DNA of 64,000 nucleotides from a virus, in the IMG/VR virus record IMGVR_UViG_3300025010_000005, positions 36,705 through 100,704 of that record, one strand, 5' to 3'. The notes beneath the pieces are model-generated. The model was not told where the DNA came from. It did not search any database and saw only the letters and a list, made by a program, of their open reading frames with translations. Positions 50,857 through 57,214 of this stretch are shown here, piece after piece; the first letter of the stretch is position 1, and each line of letters starts with the position of its first letter. A program made the position numbers and the translations under genes.

Positions 50857-51144
50857 ATGTGTGAAGGTTGTAACGGAATCGAAAAATCCTCACTATACTT
50901 GACATTGTTCGCAAAATGTGATATGCTTGATATTGAAAATCCGGCAAGTGGAGGCAGATACCGAACGGAAGTAATTATTGACAATATCCAAACCGCTTCA
51001 ATTATGGCAGACTTTGTTTCTGAATATTTTGGTATTGAAGCTATGGTTACTGTGGGAAAGAATTACGAAGACTCTGAGATGGTTTACTGGAATAAAAGTT
51101 ATGCTGACAATCTTATGCCAGGATATGAAGAAGATGAGGTGTAA
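50857..51144 (+). CDS. hypothetical protein
   Basis: AAAGGA SD before ATG 50857; acidic. Confidence 0.65.
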   Translation: MCEGCNGIEKSSLYLTLFAKCDMLDIENPASGGRYRTEVIIDNIQTASIMADFVSEYFGIEAMVTVGKNYEDSEMVYWNKSYADNLMPGYEEDEV

Positions 51145-51459
51145 GTGGGACATTATGATAATTCGCAAATAAAATGTTCTCATTGTGGGTCTGAATATGG
51201 AACTTGGAGTTTTGCATCGTTTGAACTTCATCAAAAGGAATGTGAAAAGTTAAAGGAGTCATTTACAGAAAAATACAATAAAATTGTAAAGTTTGTAAAA
51301 CAAAGTGGTTCTAAATATTTTCTTATTGTTACTAAAGATACTAACGCTGTAATGATGAACAAAGATCAAATTTATAATTTAAACGCAAATTACAAATGGA
51401 GAAATTATTGTGAACGAGATGTTGTCGTTATTCCAATTGATTGGAAGCATGTTTTTTGA
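51145..51459 (+). CDS. hypothetical zinc-finger protein
   Basis: GAGG SD; CxxC...HxxxC. Confidence 0.65.
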   Translation: MGHYDNSQIKCSHCGSEYGTWSFASFELHQKECEKLKESFTEKYNKIVKFVKQSGSKYFLIVTKDTNAVMMNKDQIYNLNANYKWRNYCERDVVVIPIDWKHVF

Positions 51460-51602
51460 GAGAAGCGATATGATTCAAAATATTGTTAACTACGTTAATG
51501 GTTTTATGATGTGTTGGGGTTATGTCAGTGTTATGTGTTTTATTGTTATGGCGATAATTTATGTCAACGCACCGACAGAAGTTATCAACGTCGAGGAGAA
51601 CG

Positions 51603-52631
51603 ATGGATAAAAAGAAGATTTATGACTTTTGCAAGATTCTAGTTGATTCAAAACAAGATTGGTTTGCAATTCATAAGGAAGCAGTAAAGAATGATATTGT
51701 CACTAAATATGTTGATTGTAACGAGCTTCGCAATATTTATCGAGACTGTGCTGCCGAACTTGCTTGTGGACTATCTTTACCAGAAGTTAAAGATTATGGA
51801 ACATATGAAAAATCTTTTTTCTCTTTTATCAATAAAAAGCCAAGTAGATTTCCAGTAAGGAAAAAGGTGGAGAACTCCAGCAATCGAGAAACAATTTTGG
51901 TTATTGCTGATTTACATGTTCCTTATGAAGATAAAGTCAGACTAAAAAAGATTGTTGACGAATGGGCAGGAAAAGCAGATAAATTAGTTATTGCTGGAGA
52001 TTTTCTTAACGGAAGTCAATTATCTCGTTATCCAAAGATGATTGTTGAAAATTTTAAAGAAGAGGTTGCTAAAGGTAGACTTGTATTGGAATATCTAGCT
52101 TCCAAGTTTAATGAAGTAGTTCTTCTTGATGATAACCATATTTCATCACGTTGGAGTAAATTCATTTCAAATACAGTAACACCTGATTTATTCTTCTTAA
52201 CGGTTCATCCTTATGATTACCTTTGTGCTGGACTTCCTAATGTTATAAGAGCAGGAAACACATTCGAGAAATTTCAGGAACAAGTTGGTTGGATGTATGT
52301 AATTGGTGACTGTGTTATCGCTCATGGCGAAGTTAGTTCTGTTGTTGAGATGAAGCCAGTTCGTCGTGTTCAAGAATATTATGGAAAATGGCGTCATGCC
52401 CTAAATCTACCAGAAGGTAGAGTATTTATTCAGGGACACAATCATTCTTGCGGTCTTTTCCATGACACAGACGGTGCCGTAATTTTTCCGGGAGCGTTAG
52501 TTTCATTAGACGGCGTTCATTATGCAATGGGGCCTGAAATGAGAGGAAGACCTCCTATTCCTGGTTATTGCGTAATTGTACAAGAAGATGGCAAAACTAT
52601 ACTTGAAGAAATTATTGTAAAGAGGGTTTGA
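51603..52631 (+). CDS. calcineurin-like metallophosphoesterase
   Basis: ADLH, AGDF, DNH, AHG, GHNH motifs; GAGGAG SD before ATG 51603. Confidence 0.9.
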   Translation: MDKKKIYDFCKILVDSKQDWFAIHKEAVKNDIVTKYVDCNELRNIYRDCAAELACGLSLPEVKDYGTYEKSFFSFINKKPSRFPVRKKVENSSNRETILVIADLHVPYEDKVRLKKIVDEWAGKADKLVIAGDFLNGSQLSRYPKMIVENFKEEVAKGRLVLEYLASKFNEVVLLDDNHISSRWSKFISNTVTPDLFFLTVHPYDYLCAGLPNVIRAGNTFEKFQEQVGWMYVIGDCVIAHGEVSSVVEMKPVRRVQEYYGKWRHALNLPEGRVFIQGHNHSCGLFHDTDGAVIFPGALVSLDGVHYAMGPEMRGRPPIPGYCVIVQEDGKTILEEIIVKRV

Positions 52632-52819
52632 TGTTTAAATTTTTTAAGAAGAAAAAAACACTTGACAGCGAGACTCAAATGTTATATAATAGTCTTGTTA
52701 ATTGGATTGAGTGGTTGGGATCAACAGAATTACCTTCAAAGCCTTATGCTCAATTTGGTTTAGGAAAAAGAGATATTTTAAAGATTTTACAATTGATGGA
52801 GGAACGCGGATATGAATAA
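52628..52819 (+). CDS. hypothetical protein
   Basis: GAGG SD; overlaps upstream stop. Confidence 0.55.
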   Translation: MMFKFFKKKKTLDSETQMLYNSLVNWIEWLGSTELPSKPYAQFGLGKRDILKILQLMEERGYE

Positions 52820-53002
52820 CAATTTTCTAAAGGCTTGTGCGTTGTTTGGAACTTTTGCAATCTTAAATATTGATTCGCATTTGGTTAACAATGTCACAAC
52901 CACAAATATTAATCTATTAATTCAGTGTTGGATTTTGGTTCAGTATGCAATTGACGTATTTGATGTATTTGGAAAGAATAAAAAGTAATTTTAAAAAAGG
53001 TA

Positions 53003-53031
53003 TTGACAACTTAAATTATTTGTGTTATGAT
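53003..53031 (+). promoter_or_regulatory. promoter of tRNA cluster
   Basis: TTGACA-17 nt-TATGAT with TG. Confidence 0.8.
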
Positions 53032-53083
53032 GTATTTGTTGAGTTGAAAAACAACTTAATTAAAATAATTATGTGACACAGTT

Positions 53084-53118
53084 GCCGGATTAACTCAGTT
53101 GGTCAGAGTTCCTGATTT
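53084..53118 (+). pseudogene. 5' half of a split tRNA (probably Thr-UGU)
   Basis: GCCGGAT-TA-ACTC-AGTTGGTCA-GAGT-T-CCTGA-TTT: acceptor strand, D arm, anticodon stem 5' strand. Confidence 0.75.
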
Positions 53119-53171
53119 ACATTTCGCCAATGTCATTCTCATATATAAAGTTATTAATAGAGGTATTATAT

Positions 53172-53789
53172 ATGAGAATGACAAAAAGCGAAGCTGGTAA
53201 ATTAGGACAACAAAAAAGTTTAGAAACTCATAAAAGAAAAAAAGAAGTTCGTATTCAAGAATATTTACAAAATCCAAATAAATGTACGTTTTGTGGAGAA
53301 AATTTAAAGTACGAAAAAAGAAAAAATAAATTTTGTTCTAGATCATGTCAGGCAAAATATTCAAACGCCAGAAGGTATAAATGTTTACAAAAACAAAACT
53401 GTATTTGTTGTGAAAAAACTTTATCAAGAAATAATGGAACTGGTTATTGCGTTGATTGTTTTGCAAAAACAAGGCGAAAACAAGTATCGGAAGATTGGTT
53501 GAATGGTACAAAAGAATATATTTCAGAGCAATTACCTAAATTTGTAAAAAGATTTATTGTTGAATATTATAAAAATACTTGTGGTAAATGTAATTTATCT
53601 ATTTGGAATAACAAACCAATACCTTTAGAAATAGATCACATTGATGGAAATCCATTGAATCATGATTTTAAAAATTTACGATTAATATGTCCTAATTGTC
53701 ATGCTCAAACCGACACATATAAAGCCAAAAATGCTGGAAACGGTAGGGCATATAGAAGAGAACGATATAAAGAAGGAAAAAGTTACTAA
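53172..53789 (+). CDS. zinc-finger HNH homing endonuclease
   Basis: CxxC, FCSRSC, LEIDHIDGN...NLRLICPNCHAQT; GAGG SD before ATG 53172. Confidence 0.92.
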   Translation: MRMTKSEAGKLGQQKSLETHKRKKEVRIQEYLQNPNKCTFCGENLKYEKRKNKFCSRSCQAKYSNARRYKCLQKQNCICCEKTLSRNNGTGYCVDCFAKTRRKQVSEDWLNGTKEYISEQLPKFVKRFIVEYYKNTCGKCNLSIWNNKPIPLEIDHIDGNPLNHDFKNLRLICPNCHAQTDTYKAKNAGNGRAYRRERYKEGKSY

Positions 53790-53795
53790 TTTAAT

Positions 53796-53867
53796 GCTCC
53801 AATAAGCATAACGGTAGTGCCTTCGTTTTGTACGCGAAAGGTGTGGGTTCAATTCCTGCTTGGAGCT
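53796..53867 (+). tRNA. tRNA-Thr(UGU)
   Basis: GCTCCAA/TTGGAGC acceptor; loop TT-TGT-AC; TTCAATT T loop. Confidence 0.8.
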
Positions 53868-53904
53868 TTGTAGGGAGTCGTCAGTTCGAATCTGACTCTC
53901 GGCT
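53868..53904 (+). pseudogene. 3' half of the split tRNA
   Basis: TTGTA-GGGAGTC-GTCAG-TTCGAAT-CTGAC-TCTCGGC; CGGC pairs with GCCG at 53084. Confidence 0.75.
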
Positions 53905-53934
53905 CTAAGAACATTGAAAATTGAATAAAAGAAT

Positions 53935-54005
53935 GCCGAATTAGTATAATGGTAGTGCAAAAGACTTTGAATCTTTGAGCATAGGTTCGATTCCTATATT
54001 CGGTG
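53935..54005 (+). tRNA. tRNA-Gln(UUG)
   Basis: cloverleaf; AAAGA-CTTTGAA-TCTTT. Confidence 0.9.
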
Positions 54006-54105
54006 CTAGTACAACTAACTCTTGGGAGTATTAAATTGGTGGAAGGCCAATTCTGTAGTGAGATTCAGTCATCAGGCCCGAGGGAACTCACAACGTTGTA
54101 CATCA

Positions 54106-54183
54106 GGGAACGAAGTTATACGGTTTAACAAGCGTCTGTAAAACGCCCGCTTCGGCTAGTTGGTTCAACTCCAACCGTTCCCA
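54106..54183 (+). tRNA. tRNA-Tyr(GUA)
   Basis: cloverleaf; CTGTAAA loop; variable arm. Confidence 0.88.
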
Positions 54184-54185
54184 CT

Positions 54186-54259
54186 GTGTCGGTAATCTAA
54201 AGGTAGGATAACAGATTGTGAATCTGTGTATGGCAGTTCAATTCTGCTCCGACACCCCA
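54186..54259 (+). tRNA. tRNA-His(GUG)
   Basis: ACAGA-TTGTGAA-TCTGT; C73; encoded CCA. Confidence 0.9.
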
Positions 54260-54295
54260 AGTTTGGCGGTTTCTACGTTAAAACCGTCACCTTAT

Positions 54296-54365
54296 AGCGG
54301 GGAGAATTGGTATTCAAGATGGTCTCATAAGCCATTCCTCGACAGTTCGATTCTGTCCTCCGTTA
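54296..54365 (+). tRNA. tRNA-Met(CAU)
   Basis: ATGGT-CTCATAA-GCCAT; short D arm. Confidence 0.8.
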
Positions 54366-54457
54366 CTGACAACATTTGTTAGGATTGTAAACAATGGTTC
54401 AACTCCATTATCTGCTACTTGACATAAGAGAATCCGTAAAGTCGGCCTTTTATGTTT

Positions 54458-54536
54458 TTCCAATAGATAGGTCATAAAGTCGGGAAGAGATTTGATCACC
54501 TCTGTCGCCTCAAGGTTCAATTCCTTGCTATTGGAA
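54458..54536 (+). other. atypical tRNA-like element (possible degenerate Ile-GAU)
   Basis: 9-bp terminal stem, perfect T arm CAAGG-TTCAATT-CCTTG, enlarged anticodon loop, no D stem. Confidence 0.5.
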
Positions 54537-54540
54537 TATC

Positions 54541-54616
54541 TCAAACGTAGCTCAGTTGGTTAGAGCGTCCGCCTGTTAAGCGGAAGGTTTCGCGGGTTCA
54601 AGTCCCGTCGTTTGAG
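54541..54616 (+). tRNA. tRNA-Asn(GUU)
   Basis: TCCGC-CTGTTAA-GCGGA. Confidence 0.92.
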
Positions 54617-54685
54617 CCTAACGGAGAGTTATTATTGAAGTGGAATAACTCAATTGTCAGTAGGACTGGGACTGGCAAGCCAATT

Positions 54686-54759
54686 CTAGGCGTAACTCAG
54701 CTTGGTAGAGAGGTCGCTTTGGAAGCGATCAGTCGCACGTTCGAATCGTGCCGTCTAGA
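54686..54759 (+). tRNA. tRNA-Pro(UGG)
   Basis: GTCGC-TTTGGAA-GCGAT. Confidence 0.9.
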
Positions 54760-54765
54760 CTAAAT

Positions 54766-54836
54766 GCGTCATTCATCTAACGGAAGGATATGGAGTTTCT
54801 ACCTCCAGAATAAGGGTTCGATTCCTTTATGACGTA
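54766..54836 (+). tRNA. tRNA-Arg(UCU)
   Basis: TGGAG-TTTCTAC-CTCCA. Confidence 0.88.
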
Positions 54837-54841
54837 CCTTT

Positions 54842-54915
54842 GCTATCGTATCAGAATTGGCATATGAGCTTGACTTAAAATCAAGAATTTGCGGGTTCAA
54901 CTCCCGCCGATAGCA
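54842..54915 (+). tRNA. tRNA-Leu(UAA), short variable loop
   Basis: CTTGA-CTTAAAA-TCAAG. Confidence 0.88.
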
Positions 54916-54919
54916 CTAT

Positions 54920-54990
54920 ACAACCATGGTCTAAAGGAAGGGCGCAACGCTACGAACGTTGAAATATGGGTTCGATTCCTATTGGTTGTA
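54920..54990 (+). tRNA. tRNA-Arg(ACG)
   Basis: CAACG-CTACGAA-CGTTG. Confidence 0.88.
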
Positions 54991-54994
54991 TCGC

Positions 54995-55068
54995 GCCGAT
55001 GTATCCGAATTGGCATAGGAGCCACTCTTAGAAAGTGGAATTTGGAGGTTCGACTCCTCTCATCGGCA
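54995..55068 (+). tRNA. tRNA-Leu(UAG), short variable loop
   Basis: CCACT-CTTAGAA-AGTGG. Confidence 0.88.
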
Positions 55069-55073
55069 CCTTT

Positions 55074-55149
55074 GCTTCCATAGCTCAGTTGGTAGAGCAT
55101 CTGCCTGAAGAACAGAAGGTCTCTGGATCGATACCAGATGGAAGCACCA
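55074..55149 (+). tRNA. tRNA-Phe(GAA)
   Basis: CTGAAGA loop; encoded CCA; variant T loop ATCGATA. Confidence 0.88.
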
Positions 55150-55151
55150 AT

Positions 55152-55222
55152 GGCACCGTAATTTAATGGAGAATACCACATTGTCACTGTGGAGAACGAG
55201 GGTTCAAGTCCCTTCGGTGTCG
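55152..55222 (+). tRNA. tRNA-Asp(GUC)
   Basis: CCACA-TTGTCAC-TGTGG. Confidence 0.9.
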
Positions 55223-55289
55223 CCTTGCAATAAACAACTGTGATCGACTGGTTCAATCTTTGCGAAAGCCTTTTGTTTATTGTGTTTAA

Positions 55290-55360
55290 GCCACTATCGT
55301 CTAATGGTCGGACGCTAGACTTTCAATCTGGAAATCGGGGTTCAATTCCCCGTAGTGGTG
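55290..55360 (+). tRNA. tRNA-Glu(UUC)
   Basis: CTAGA-CTTTCAA-TCTGG. Confidence 0.9.
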
Positions 55361-55498
55361 CCTTTTTGTTGGAGAAGCAATGAATATAAAAGAAATATTT
55401 GAAAAAGCAAATAATAAGATTAATGAGTTACAACAAATGGATAAAAGAAAACTTATTATAGTTGAGAATGGAAATGGTTGTTATTCAATAAAAATTTT

Positions 55499-55569
55499 GC
55501 GGTATTAATCTAATGGTAAAATGCTAGTTTTCCAAACTGGACATGAGAGTTCGATTCTCTCATACCGCA
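55499..55569 (+). tRNA. tRNA-Gly(UCC)
   Basis: CTAGT-TTTCCAA-ACTGG. Confidence 0.88.
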
Positions 55570-55597
55570 CCTTTGCAGTAACTTAGTTTGCTGCCAT

Positions 55598-55668
55598 GCA
55601 GTAGTAATTAAATGGTAGAATGCAACGTTGCCAACGTTGATATGAAGGTTCGATTCCTTTCTATTGCA
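55598..55668 (+). tRNA. tRNA-Gly(GCC)
   Basis: CAACG-TTGCCAA-CGTTG. Confidence 0.88.
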
Positions 55669-55774
55669 CCTTTGGAGGAAACATGTTTGAATGTGATATT
55701 TATTTGGTTGACGATCTTGAGGAGGGAATGTTTCAAGATTGTGATGATGAAGAATATAATGAATGGTATTTATT

Positions 55775-55846
55775 GGGGGGTTAGTGCTAGTGGTAACACA
55801 CAAGTCCTGCAAACTTGAATCAGGGGTTCGACTCCCCTACCTTCCA
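55775..55846 (+). tRNA. tRNA-Ala(UGC)
   Basis: CAAGT-CCTGCAA-ACTTG; G3:U70. Confidence 0.88.
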
Positions 55847-55851
55847 CCTGT

Positions 55852-55926
55852 GAGTATGATGCCGATGTTGGTAAAGGCCACAGTCTGCAAAACTGTGTTA
55901 CGAAGGTTCGATTCCTTTCATACTCT
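55852..55926 (+). tRNA. tRNA-Cys(GCA)
   Basis: ACAGT-CTGCAAA-ACTGT; U73. Confidence 0.9.
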
Positions 55927-55931
55927 CCTAT

Positions 55932-56004
55932 GGCCGATTGGCGCAATTGGTAGCGCAAGTTCCCTACAAGAACGAGGTTGAAGGTTCGAGTCCTTCATTG
56001 GTCA
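55932..56004 (+). tRNA. tRNA-Val(UAC)
   Basis: GTTC-CCTACAA-GAAC. Confidence 0.85.
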
Positions 56005-56008
56005 CTAT

Positions 56009-56082
56009 GTTGGTGTAACTTAATGGAAAGTAACTGTCTCTTAAACAGTTCGATGGTGGTTCAAACCCACTCACCAATACCA
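56009..56082 (+). tRNA. tRNA-Lys(CUU)
   Basis: ACTGT-CTCTTAA-ACAGT; encoded CCA. Confidence 0.88.
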
Positions 56083-56083
56083 T

Positions 56084-56156
56084 GGGCGCGTAATTCAATG
56101 GCTAGAATAACAGTCTTTTAAACTGTGAAATGGGGGTTCGAATCCTCTCACGCCCA
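56084..56156 (+). tRNA. tRNA-Lys(UUU)
   Basis: ACAGT-CTTTTAA-ACTGT. Confidence 0.9.
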
Positions 56157-56253
56157 CCTTGAAAACTCATGATCAGACCATAGATCCCTCGGAGAGTATA
56201 CGCTCCATATGGCCATCAAAGGCGTCTAAAGAGGATAATTGAGTTTTCATCCC

Positions 56254-56326
56254 GCCGATATATTCGAATGGCAGAGAAGTCAGTTTCAAAAACTGAAATT
56301 TGTCGGTTCAAGTCCGACTATCGGCA
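56254..56326 (+). tRNA. tRNA-Leu(CAA), short variable loop
   Basis: TCAGT-TTCAAAA-ACTGA. Confidence 0.85.
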
Positions 56327-56330
56327 CCTT

Positions 56331-56417
56331 GGAACATTGACAGAGTTTGGTATTGTACCTGATTGCTAATCAGTGGTCAACAGAAATGTTGCGTTGGTTC
56401 AAATCCAACATGTTCCG
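56331..56417 (+). tRNA. tRNA-Ser(GCU)
   Basis: TTGCTAA loop; long variable arm; G73. Confidence 0.9.
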
Positions 56418-56426
56418 CCTTTTTTT

Positions 56427-56510
56427 GGAGTGTGTCCGGGTGGTGAGGAAGCTGTCTTGAAAACAGTTGGTTATAATGACTTGTGGGTTCGAATCCTATG
56501 CACTCCGCCA
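56427..56510 (+). tRNA. tRNA-Ser(UGA)
   Basis: GCTGT-CTTGAAA-ACAGT; variable arm; CCA. Confidence 0.88.
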
Positions 56511-56515
56511 AATTT

Positions 56516-56597
56516 GCGTCTGTAGCCTAATGGTATGGCAGCGGTCTCCAAAACCGTGTTGGAAACGACAATGAAGGTTCGACTCCTTCCAGATGCG
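56516..56597 (+). tRNA. tRNA-Trp(CCA) with long variable arm
   Basis: GCGGT-CTCCAAA-ACCGT; 15-nt variable region; G73. Confidence 0.85.
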
Positions 56598-56601
56598 CCT
56601 C

Positions 56602-56628
56602 GCCCCTCTTTTTGAGGGGCTTTTTTTT
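56602..56628 (+). terminator. terminator of tRNA cluster
   Basis: GCCCCTC-ttttt-GAGGGGC then T8. Confidence 0.9.
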
Positions 56629-56633
56629 GTATC

Positions 56634-56662
56634 TTGACAACTAGATGTAATTATGCTATACT
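56634..56662 (+). promoter_or_regulatory. sigma70/sigmaA promoter
   Basis: TTGACA-17 nt-TATACT with TG. Confidence 0.8.
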
Positions 56663-56694
56663 GTTATATGTAATTGAGAAAGGAAAAAAAAAGA

Positions 56695-56916
56695 ATGACA
56701 CCTATTTGTGAAATATGCGGTTGTGAATTAGAAATTGTCGATGGAAAGGTTATGCCTTGTTCTAATTATGGTTGTCCCGGCGTACAATATGCATTACCAC
56801 ATAAAGAAAAAGTCAAGCATCCTTCTGGTGGAACCAAAAAACCAATGAATATGGTTAGACAAGATAGACGAAAGAAAAATAAATCTGCAAGAAAGGCAAG
56901 AAGAAAAAATGCTTAG
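56695..56916 (+). CDS. small zinc-binding basic protein
   Basis: AAAGGA SD; CxxC...CxxxxC and Arg/Lys-rich tail. Confidence 0.65.
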   Translation: MTPICEICGCELEIVDGKVMPCSNYGCPGVQYALPHKEKVKHPSGGTKKPMNMVRQDRRKKNKSARKARRKNA

Positions 56917-57214
56917 AAAATTTTTATTGTATGTTCTACCGTATAAATTGGTTGTATGGCTAACCAAAACTCGTTGTGCTGGATCTGCTTTAATTGGAAA
57001 ATATGACAGCAGAGGTACGGAAAAACAATACAAAATTTGGTTTATTGATGAAGACAACTTATTATTACAACGAGAATGGGAAATCAATAAAACAGAAAAA
57101 CAAAAGAAAAAAGAACAAAGTAATTTGGAAAGAAAATTAAATAAAGCAGAGAGAAAATCAAATAAAAGTCATAGAGAATATTTGATGCTCAAAAACAAGG
57201 CGGAGAAAGGATAA
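56909..57214 (+). CDS. hypothetical protein
   Basis: operon packing. Confidence 0.65.
   Translation: MLRKFLLYVLPYKLVVWLTKTRCAGSALIGKYDSRGTEKQYKIWFIDEDNLLLQREWEINKTEKQKKKEQSNLERKLNKAERKSNKSHREYLMLKNKAEKG

Follow-up and report, generated by a model that had tools for sequence, protein, structure and literature searches.

Background

SegB of phages T4 and T6 is a free-standing nuclease encoded in a cluster of transfer RNA (tRNA) genes, and its targets are the tRNA genes of relatives that lack the nuclease (PMC2330249). It recognises a T-loop common to many tRNA genes, the nuclease gene and the tRNA genes that flank it are copied in by repair and overwrite the versions of the recipient, and RNA structure or processing is believed to hold down expression of the enzyme (PMC2330249). 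Three HNH endonucleases of phages T5 and BF23, F-TflI and F-TflII as well as F-TflIV, are placed in the tRNA region by Akulenko et al. (2004), as that work is cited in PMC2330249 and PMC10644984, and HNH genes in the tRNA arrays of Cluster M mycobacteriophages have been linked to diversity of the tRNA repertoire (Pope et al. 2014, as cited in PMC5966550). In Lak megaphages a tRNA-Thr(TGT) carries an 'enigmatic intron' that may encode a tRNA, and variants free of the insert exist (Devoto et al. 2019, PMC6784885). Group I introns that are mobile and carry homing endonucleases are found in the anticodon loops of bacterial tRNA genes (PMC2330249). Here we analyse a stretch of 64,000 nucleotides (nt) of virus DNA (the window; bases 36705-100704 of IMG/VR record IMGVR_UViG_3300025010_000005, a complete 100.7-kb phage genome with direct terminal repeats), in which a gene for an HNH homing endonuclease and a complete tRNA-Thr(UGU) gene lie between the two halves of what is best read as an older tRNA-Thr(UGU) gene.

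To our knowledge, homing endonucleases have been thought to enter conserved genes only inside a self-splicing intron or intein, or else to sit beside their target. The locus described here would represent a third way, in which the element enters the gene itself, breaks it and carries a spare. Full-text literature searches returned no description of a homing endonuclease and a same-anticodon replacement tRNA nested in the tRNA gene that they replace, which agrees with an earlier note on this DNA, made from the sequence alone, whose author model did not recognise the architecture as a described one; the Lak megaphage insert is a partial precedent (PMC6784885).

We conclude that a mobile cassette of an HNH endonuclease gene and a tRNA gene probably split a resident tRNA-Thr(UGU) gene and now supplies its replacement, a form of homing that would require neither an intron nor splicing. 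The observations that follow establish how the locus is built, that the old gene has decayed, that this HNH clade is tied to tRNA-Thr genes and that the closest homologue has a filled and an empty site.

Results

Anatomy of the split locus

All parts of the locus lie on the plus strand. The 5' half of the old gene (53084-53118) was found by nhmmer and can be read directly as the acceptor strand GCCGGAT, TA, a D arm ACTC-AGTTGGTCA-GAGT, a T, the anticodon-stem strand CCTGA and the loop bases TTT, which reach tRNA position 33 or 34. It is followed by a 53-nt cassette leader (53119-53171) with a GAGG ribosome-binding site at 53160-53163, an intact gene for an HNH homing endonuclease of 205 amino acids (53172-53789; assigned with PHROG), a spacer of 6 nt and the replacement tRNA-Thr(UGU) (53796-53867). 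The last is called as one complete tRNA-Thr(tgt) of 72 nt by both ARAGORN and Rfam (53.7 bits), with a perfect acceptor stem (GCTCCAA/TTGGAGC) and no encoded CCA. The 3' half of the old gene (53867-53905; nhmmer) begins with TTTGTA, which supplies the loop with its TGT anticodon, and continues after a 4-nt deletion with the GG of the 3' anticodon stem, a GAGTC variable loop, a T arm GTCAG/TTCGAAT/CTGAC, the acceptor strand TCTCGGC and the discriminator base T. The T at 53867 is both the first base of the 3' half and the end of the new tRNA. The insert measures 751 base pairs (bp; 53119-53869), and because TTT stands at both junctions its position can slide by up to 3 nt.

The earlier note had claimed a 5' half, an HNH gene, a complete tRNA-Thr(UGU) and a 3' half at this locus, and all four were recovered at its coordinates by reading, ARAGORN, Rfam and nhmmer. 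Its description of the 3' half, as 53868-53904 with a CGGC acceptor strand, holds for the existence of the half and was adjusted in detail: the match extends over 53867-53905, 4 nt are missing from it and its acceptor strand pairs only in part with that of the 5' half (see below).

The non-coding DNA of the insert consists of the 53-nt leader, the 6-nt spacer and the inner tRNA. A cmscan search of positions 52500-54600, with permissive filters and expect values (E) up to 10, found no group I intron or other Rfam family beyond tRNA in the insert. We therefore rejected a group I intron, for which there is neither an Rfam match nor room, in line with the observation in the earlier note that no intron core would fit.

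Identity and decay of the old tRNA gene

We built a profile hidden Markov model from ten tRNA-Thr(UGU) genes of other phages, none of them from the window, and searched the whole window with it using nhmmer. Positions 53084-53118 match profile positions 1-35 (E 9.7e-6) and positions 53867-53905 match profile positions 33-75 (E 5.3e-5), on the same strand and in the correct order. The halves are thus complementary pieces of one cloverleaf that is broken in the anticodon loop. Two complementary profile matches with E values of about 1e-5 each also led us to reject a chance resemblance.

The nhmmer alignment places a 4-nt gap directly after TTTGTA in the 3' half, so that the half lacks A38 and three bases of the 3' anticodon stem; the GG that is left of this stem fits the CCTGA of the 5' half. 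When the two halves are plainly joined, ARAGORN calls no tRNA. With the 4 nt restored, its call is a tRNA-Thr(tgt) of 75 nt whose CCTGA/TCAGG stem is perfect. The claim of the earlier note that the joined halves give a slightly decayed tRNA with a TGT anticodon is therefore upheld as far as the retained anticodon and the restored gene go, and fails for the plain join. At a lowered threshold ARAGORN calls a tRNA for nearly any join of the halves, and we give these calls little weight; in them the acceptor, D and T arms fit together and the isotype is not indicated.

The isotype was approached through the combination of D arm and T arm at tRNA spacing. In IMG/VR this pattern occurs in six contigs, as tRNA-Thr(tgt) in five and as tRNA-Met in one, and among bacteria, with one genome per species, it gives 52 matches in 49 stretches, 37 of them tRNA-Thr(tgt). 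Together with the retained TTTGTA, whose TGT anticodon is that of the inserted tRNA as well, these counts make Thr(UGU) the best reading of the old gene. Since 4 nt are missing, the plain join is not called as a tRNA and the acceptor strands contain mismatches, the old gene is a pseudogene whose function no excision could restore; judging from its sequence, it is dead.

This bears on the possibility that the insert behaves like an intron after all, being removed from the RNA by a ribozyme or by tRNA-processing enzymes together with a phage RtcB ligase, so that the ligated halves would form a second tRNA-Thr. The boundary of the insert does coincide with that of a tRNA, and RNase P and RNase Z would cut at the ends of this tRNA; an RtcB RNA ligase (188 bits) is among the products of the phage, and the 'introns' in tRNA-Thr(TGT) of Lak megaphages may encode a tRNA (PMC6784885). 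Against these points stand the lack of any match to a group I intron or other ribozyme and the failure of the joined halves, without 4 nt of the anticodon stem, to be recognised as a tRNA. Moreover, if the inner tRNA were cut at its ends, the 5' half would still be joined to about 680 nt of leader and HNH messenger RNA, and the ends made by RNase P and RNase Z are unsuited to joining by RtcB. The products of these two enzymes carry 5'-phosphate and 3'-hydroxyl ends, which RtcB does not join. Taken together, an intron-like behaviour of the insert is very improbable.

An HNH clade tied to tRNA-Thr

The product of the HNH gene, which is single-copy in the genome, matches three PHROG families, all of HNH endonucleases (10822, E 1.9e-25; 14736, E 1.1e-21; 1271, E 2.1e-18), and falls below threshold for Pfam HNH_3 (21.1 bits, cut-off 24.8) and Pfam HNH (15.7 bits, cut-off 21.4). 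Pfam and PHROG scans of the protein give only HNH families and no GIY-YIG domain, and a sequence search of the PDB gave spurious matches only and no related solved structure. The HNH motif EIDHIDGNPLNHDFKNLRLICPNCHAQT is C-terminal and preceded by CGKC, and the N-terminal part consists of Cys-rich modules that resemble zinc ribbons. In an alignment of the window protein with nine homologues, all ten sequences keep DH, N, CPNCH and the Cys pairs.

We gathered full-length homologues of this protein (33-44% identity) from IMG/VR and JGI metagenomes and scored the nearest tRNA within 300 nt of each. Among the 36 non-redundant homologues the nearest tRNA is tRNA-Thr in 20 (13 UGU, 4 GGU and 3 CGU) and of another isotype in seven; nine, several of them on short contigs, have none. 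The tRNA-Thr stands either directly before or directly after the nuclease gene, which gives two cassette orders. More distant homologues that share only the C-terminal part mostly adjoin Leu, Thr or Lys tRNAs, and phages rich in tRNAs commonly carry homologues of the HNH domain: these lie between tRNA-Ala and tRNA-Leu in the T5-like Salmonella phage SP76, beside tRNA-Leu in Yersinia phage fHe-Yen9-04 and between tRNA-Phe and tRNA-Thr in Enterococcus phage iF6. Among the INPHARED phages we found no DNA relative of the locus, the matches being to the HNH domain only.

Nested copies were sought by a profile search of the homologue loci for partial tRNA matches. A tRNA-Thr(UGU) lies between the halves of a broken tRNA gene in at least three of these loci (L166, L175 and L188), so that the pattern of half-tRNA, HNH gene, tRNA and half-tRNA for which the earlier note had suggested a search does recur. 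In L175 a 5' half (685-713) is followed by the HNH gene (835-1494), a tRNA-Thr(tgt) (1498-1584) that is 87 nt long and has a long variable arm, and a 3' half that starts from GTAATCAGG at 1600, with acceptor strands pairing at six of seven positions. In L188 the tRNA-Thr(tgt) (1521-1594) directly follows the 5' half (1489-1520) and precedes the HNH gene (1872-2513) and the 3' half (2522-2563), and all seven acceptor positions pair. The cassette of L166 is inverted, with the halves on the minus strand around a plus-strand tRNA-Thr(tgt) and HNH gene, and the acceptor strands again pair at seven of seven positions. In L095 the first 24 nt of the 5' half are those of L166 and decay of the 3' half has gone further; L208 retains a weaker trace, a single 3' half. 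Nested copies therefore occur in both gene orders and once in inverted orientation, and the break points in four loci fall at anticodon-loop positions 33-35, at least on one side.

Several tRNA genes around these nucleases are unusual in themselves. The tRNA-Thr(UGU) beside HNH homologues measures 85-92 nt and has a long variable arm, a feature seldom met in tRNA-Thr, in L167 (1820-1904), L175 (1498-1584), L102 (2352-2440), L184 (215-306) and L112 (248-332), and the HNH-adjacent tRNA-Thr(UGU) of L166, L095, L176, L188 and L192 have reduced D arms; possibly these genes are redesigns that resist the nuclease. In L129, L130 and L131 a Thr-like tRNA is split by about 81 nt into 2785-2822 (profile positions 1-42) and 2904-2941 (profile positions 36-73), next to a distant HNH homologue and a tRNA-Leu(tag), and the related L135 has an intact tRNA-Thr(agt) there. 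In SP76 the HNH gene is immediately preceded by a pair of adjacent tRNA-Ala(tgc) genes (L003: 2036-2196), the end of the nuclease open reading frame (ORF) overlaps the start of tRNA-Leu(tag), and these tRNAs are unannotated in the record.

A filled site in L166 and its empty counterparts

Of the homologues of the window HNH protein, that of L166 is the closest (44% identity over residues 7-204). When IMG/VR was searched with a 30-mer from the 5' half in L166, five contigs were found (L296-L300), and in these ARAGORN calls the tRNA-Thr(tgt) as uninterrupted. A tRNA-Pro lies directly upstream in L296-L298, as it does in L166, and the 3' flank is also shared with the uninterrupted contigs. By BLAST and alignment, L166 is collinear with L297, with flanks 96-99% identical on both sides, and an 819-bp cassette (139-957) stands in L166 in place of 11 nt, TGTAAACTGCC, which are positions 34-44 of the intact tRNA-Thr(tgt). 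The tRNA and HNH gene of L166 form a block that can be aligned as a whole to its counterpart in L095, at 67% DNA identity and in a different phage background. Empty-site relatives with flanks 96-99% identical indicate recent mobility in the clade. Uninterrupted tRNA-Thr genes in relatives, which the earlier note had proposed to look for, thus exist for this sibling element; for the phage of the window none was found.

A second replacement separates the same two contigs. Where L297 has a tRNA-Leu(caa) stretch (326-438), L166 has about 1 kb (1082-2079) with a minus-strand ORF of 182 amino acids (1495-2043).

The replacement tRNA

The cassette tRNA is the only tRNA-Thr among the 26 tRNAs of the 100.7-kb genome. 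Compared with the halves it shares no stem with the old gene, and the statement of the earlier note that it is a complete tRNA-Thr(UGU) unrelated to the old gene is borne out by this comparison and by the ARAGORN and Rfam calls. The 16-mer of its D arm, AGCATAACGGTAGTGC (53804-53819), is widespread in phage contigs, where 84 of 120 matches are in tRNA-Met(CAU) and three in tRNA-Thr; this search turned up no close tRNA-Thr relative that might be the donor of the new tRNA.

A hairpin over the start of the HNH gene

A hairpin formed by positions 53131-53148 and 53166-53183 buries the ribosome-binding site of the HNH gene along with its ATG. The leader RNA has a folding energy of -29.6 kcal/mol (z-score -8.05), none of 200 shuffled sequences folds as well, and the hairpin was also found as a self-complementary match. 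By analogy with other phage homing endonucleases, the hairpin probably keeps translation of the HNH gene low; low and controlled expression has been discussed for SegB and the T5 enzymes (PMC2330249).

Genomic setting

The phage genome has a G+C content of 34% and is present in full in groundwater metagenome runs. ARAGORN finds 25 tRNA genes in the window, in a single plus-strand cluster (53796-56599); the whole-genome list of 26 adds one tRNA outside the cluster, a tRNA-Ile(UAU). The 24 calls that follow the cassette tRNA (53935-56599, plus strand) begin with tRNA-Gln at 53935, and the old tRNA-Thr gene formerly headed this cluster or operon. About 50 nt upstream of its 5' end lies a sigma-70-like promoter (53003-53031, plus strand; TTGACA, 17 nt, TGnTATGAT; 11 of 12 matches), and no terminator-like site was found within 52600-54300. 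Transcription of the entire tRNA cluster probably starts from this promoter, and that of the HNH gene now does too.

In the cluster, ARAGORN calls a 71-nt tRNA-Met(cat) at 54296-54366, with the acceptor strand AGCGGGG and the anticodon at position 31, which the Rfam tRNA model does not match even with E up to 10; it may be an aberrant tRNA, a variant of tRNA-Ile2 or initiator tRNA, or a false call. Bacterial tRNA-Leu normally carries a long variable arm, and the three tRNA-Leu calls of the cluster (54842-54916, 54995-55070 and 56254-56328) lack it, at only 75-76 nt.

The RtcB-type RNA ligase of the phage is encoded upstream of the window, at G000:C1:20537-21604 (L246), in an open frame of 397 amino acids. 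As the phage has 26 tRNAs, the ligase suggests that tRNAs are repaired after cleavage by host anticodon nucleases. The T4-type RNA ligase family PF09511 has no match in the phage; the control genomes gave no match either, so this result is uninformative.

A neighbouring gene encodes a phosphoesterase-like protein of 356 amino acids, whose sole IMG/VR relative (L009) is 40% identical and has no tRNAs nearby. Two Logan contigs (P0002 and P0003) encode relatives of this protein at 50-52% identity.

Discussion

How the cassette might home

We infer the cleavage specificity of the enzyme, the immunity of the carried tRNA and the present activity of the cassette, and would combine them as follows. 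The HNH nuclease would be transcribed from the promoter of the tRNA operon, with no terminator between. In a mixed infection it would cut or nick, at the anticodon or close to it, the tRNA-Thr(UGU) gene that is still uninterrupted in a relative without the cassette. Repair of this break from the cassette-bearing genome would then use the two halves and their flanks as homology and copy the cassette in. The carried tRNA, which differs from the old gene in all stems and is therefore presumably not cut, would make good the loss of the target, and hence no intron would be needed. The outcome would resemble a natural cut-and-rescue drive acting on an RNA gene. Deletions at the junctions (4 nt here and 11 nt in L166) and the acceptor mismatches may reflect decay, resection or conversion tracts from diverged donors. 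A selfish cassette of this kind, which disrupts a tRNA-Thr and carries a replacement instead of splicing, is what the earlier note had proposed, and the proposal draws its support chiefly from the filled and empty pair of L166 and from the clade-wide tie to tRNA-Thr.

Several observations weigh against this reading. The acceptor strands of the old gene pair at only five of seven positions (four Watson-Crick pairs, one G-U pair and two mismatches), and the halves may come from two diverged alleles, for example with one from the flank of a donor, or may have decayed. Once the anticodon remnant is set aside, tRNAs for Val, Lys, Ile and Thr fit the 5' half about equally well, and both Cys and Thr tRNAs fit the 3' half. 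Because neither half alone is specific for an isotype, a single-gene origin of both would rest on the coincidence of their break points, on the remnant of the stem and on acceptor strands that pair in part. In L096/L172, an HNH homologue adjoins a tRNA-Thr whose anticodon arm (CCTGA..CCAGG) is nearly that of the old gene, so the anticodon arm alone cannot separate cut from uncut genes across the clade. Finally, exact 25- and 27-mers of the halves have no match in IMG/VR and the predicted intact junction has none in JGI metagenomes. When contigs of four groundwater runs were aligned on 51000-57000, no credible join across the insert was seen, a result that says nothing either way: two of the runs, perhaps the source, contain the identical, interrupted locus, and two contain short pieces only, one of them near-identical (54137-54300).

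The first two of these points might fit a recombination scar, in which fragments of two different tRNA genes, or the edges of a module exchange, merely happen to flank the HNH gene and tRNA-Thr and no targeted cleavage took place. The lack of isotype specificity in either half and the pairing of the acceptor strands at only five of seven positions are both what such a scar might leave. Nuclease genes are known from boundaries of genetic exchange between phages. However, both breaks fall at the same three anticodon-loop bases (profile positions 1-35 and 33-75), which would be rare for two independent deletions, and the remnant GG fits the CCTGA stem of the 5' half. The nesting also recurs with this HNH clade at anticodon-loop breaks in three other phages, and the pair of L166 and L297 represents a clean insertion into one gene. 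We therefore consider a recombination scar distinctly improbable.

A somewhat stronger case can be made that the cassette entered the tRNA-Thr gene long ago and that the HNH enzyme is now inert, merely undecayed, or domesticated for the amplification or exchange of tRNA and anti-defence genes in the manner of SegB. The 4-nt deletion and the two acceptor mismatches suggest that time has passed since the insertion, and a cassette-free variant was not seen in the four groundwater runs; for SegB, segmental amplification of tRNA genes against tRNA-targeting defences has been reported (PMC13096335). On the other hand, the HNH ORF is full length and has every conserved motif residue, the tight translational hairpin has been kept, as in active phage homing endonucleases, and the sibling cassette has empty-site relatives with flanks 96-99% identical. 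On balance an old insertion with a nuclease that no longer homes appears unlikely, and we prefer a cassette that homes into tRNA-Thr(UGU) and carries its replacement.

It is possible, and we suggest it only tentatively, that the whole HNH clade is specialised on the anticodon region of phage tRNA-Thr and spreads as a cut-and-rescue drive, with repeated replacement producing unorthodox tRNA-Thr genes as immunity alleles. Homing endonucleases might then be a main engine by which the tRNAs of phage tRNA clusters turn over and diversify. If the proposed mechanism is true, it would explain the tRNA fragments and the duplicate or odd tRNAs in phage tRNA clusters, it would provide a set of natural nucleases that probably read the tRNA-gene sequences of one isotype, and it would be a natural counterpart of engineered cleave-and-rescue gene drives. 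For annotation, tRNA finders do not see the half genes, and loci of this kind could pass for tRNA introns.

Comparison with known systems

The cassette resembles SegB in that a free-standing nuclease gene lies in a phage tRNA cluster and not in an intron, a likeness in mode of action and not in family. SegB is a GIY-YIG enzyme encoded between tRNA genes, whereas the HNH cassette sits inside one target gene, split at the anticodon, carries a whole replacement with the same anticodon and belongs to a clade tied to one isotype, Thr. The T5 and BF23 enzymes are likewise HNH endonucleases among phage tRNA genes, and T5-like clusters hold C-terminal homologues of the window protein, as in SP76; what is shared is the HNH domain alone, at about 30-47% identity over 60-150 residues.

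In Lak megaphages a phage tRNA-Thr(TGT) is also interrupted near its anticodon by an insert that holds a tRNA-like gene. That insert has been described as an intron, with no endonuclease reported in it and no reading in terms of homing or replacement. By analogy, the Lak insert may be a nuclease-less relative of the HNH and tRNA arrangement. Mobile group I introns, finally, share with the cassette both the insertion site in the anticodon loop and the carriage of a homing endonuclease. They differ from it in their ribozyme core, which is lacking here, and in the fate of the interrupted gene, which in this phage has decayed, its function being restored by a second gene and not by splicing.

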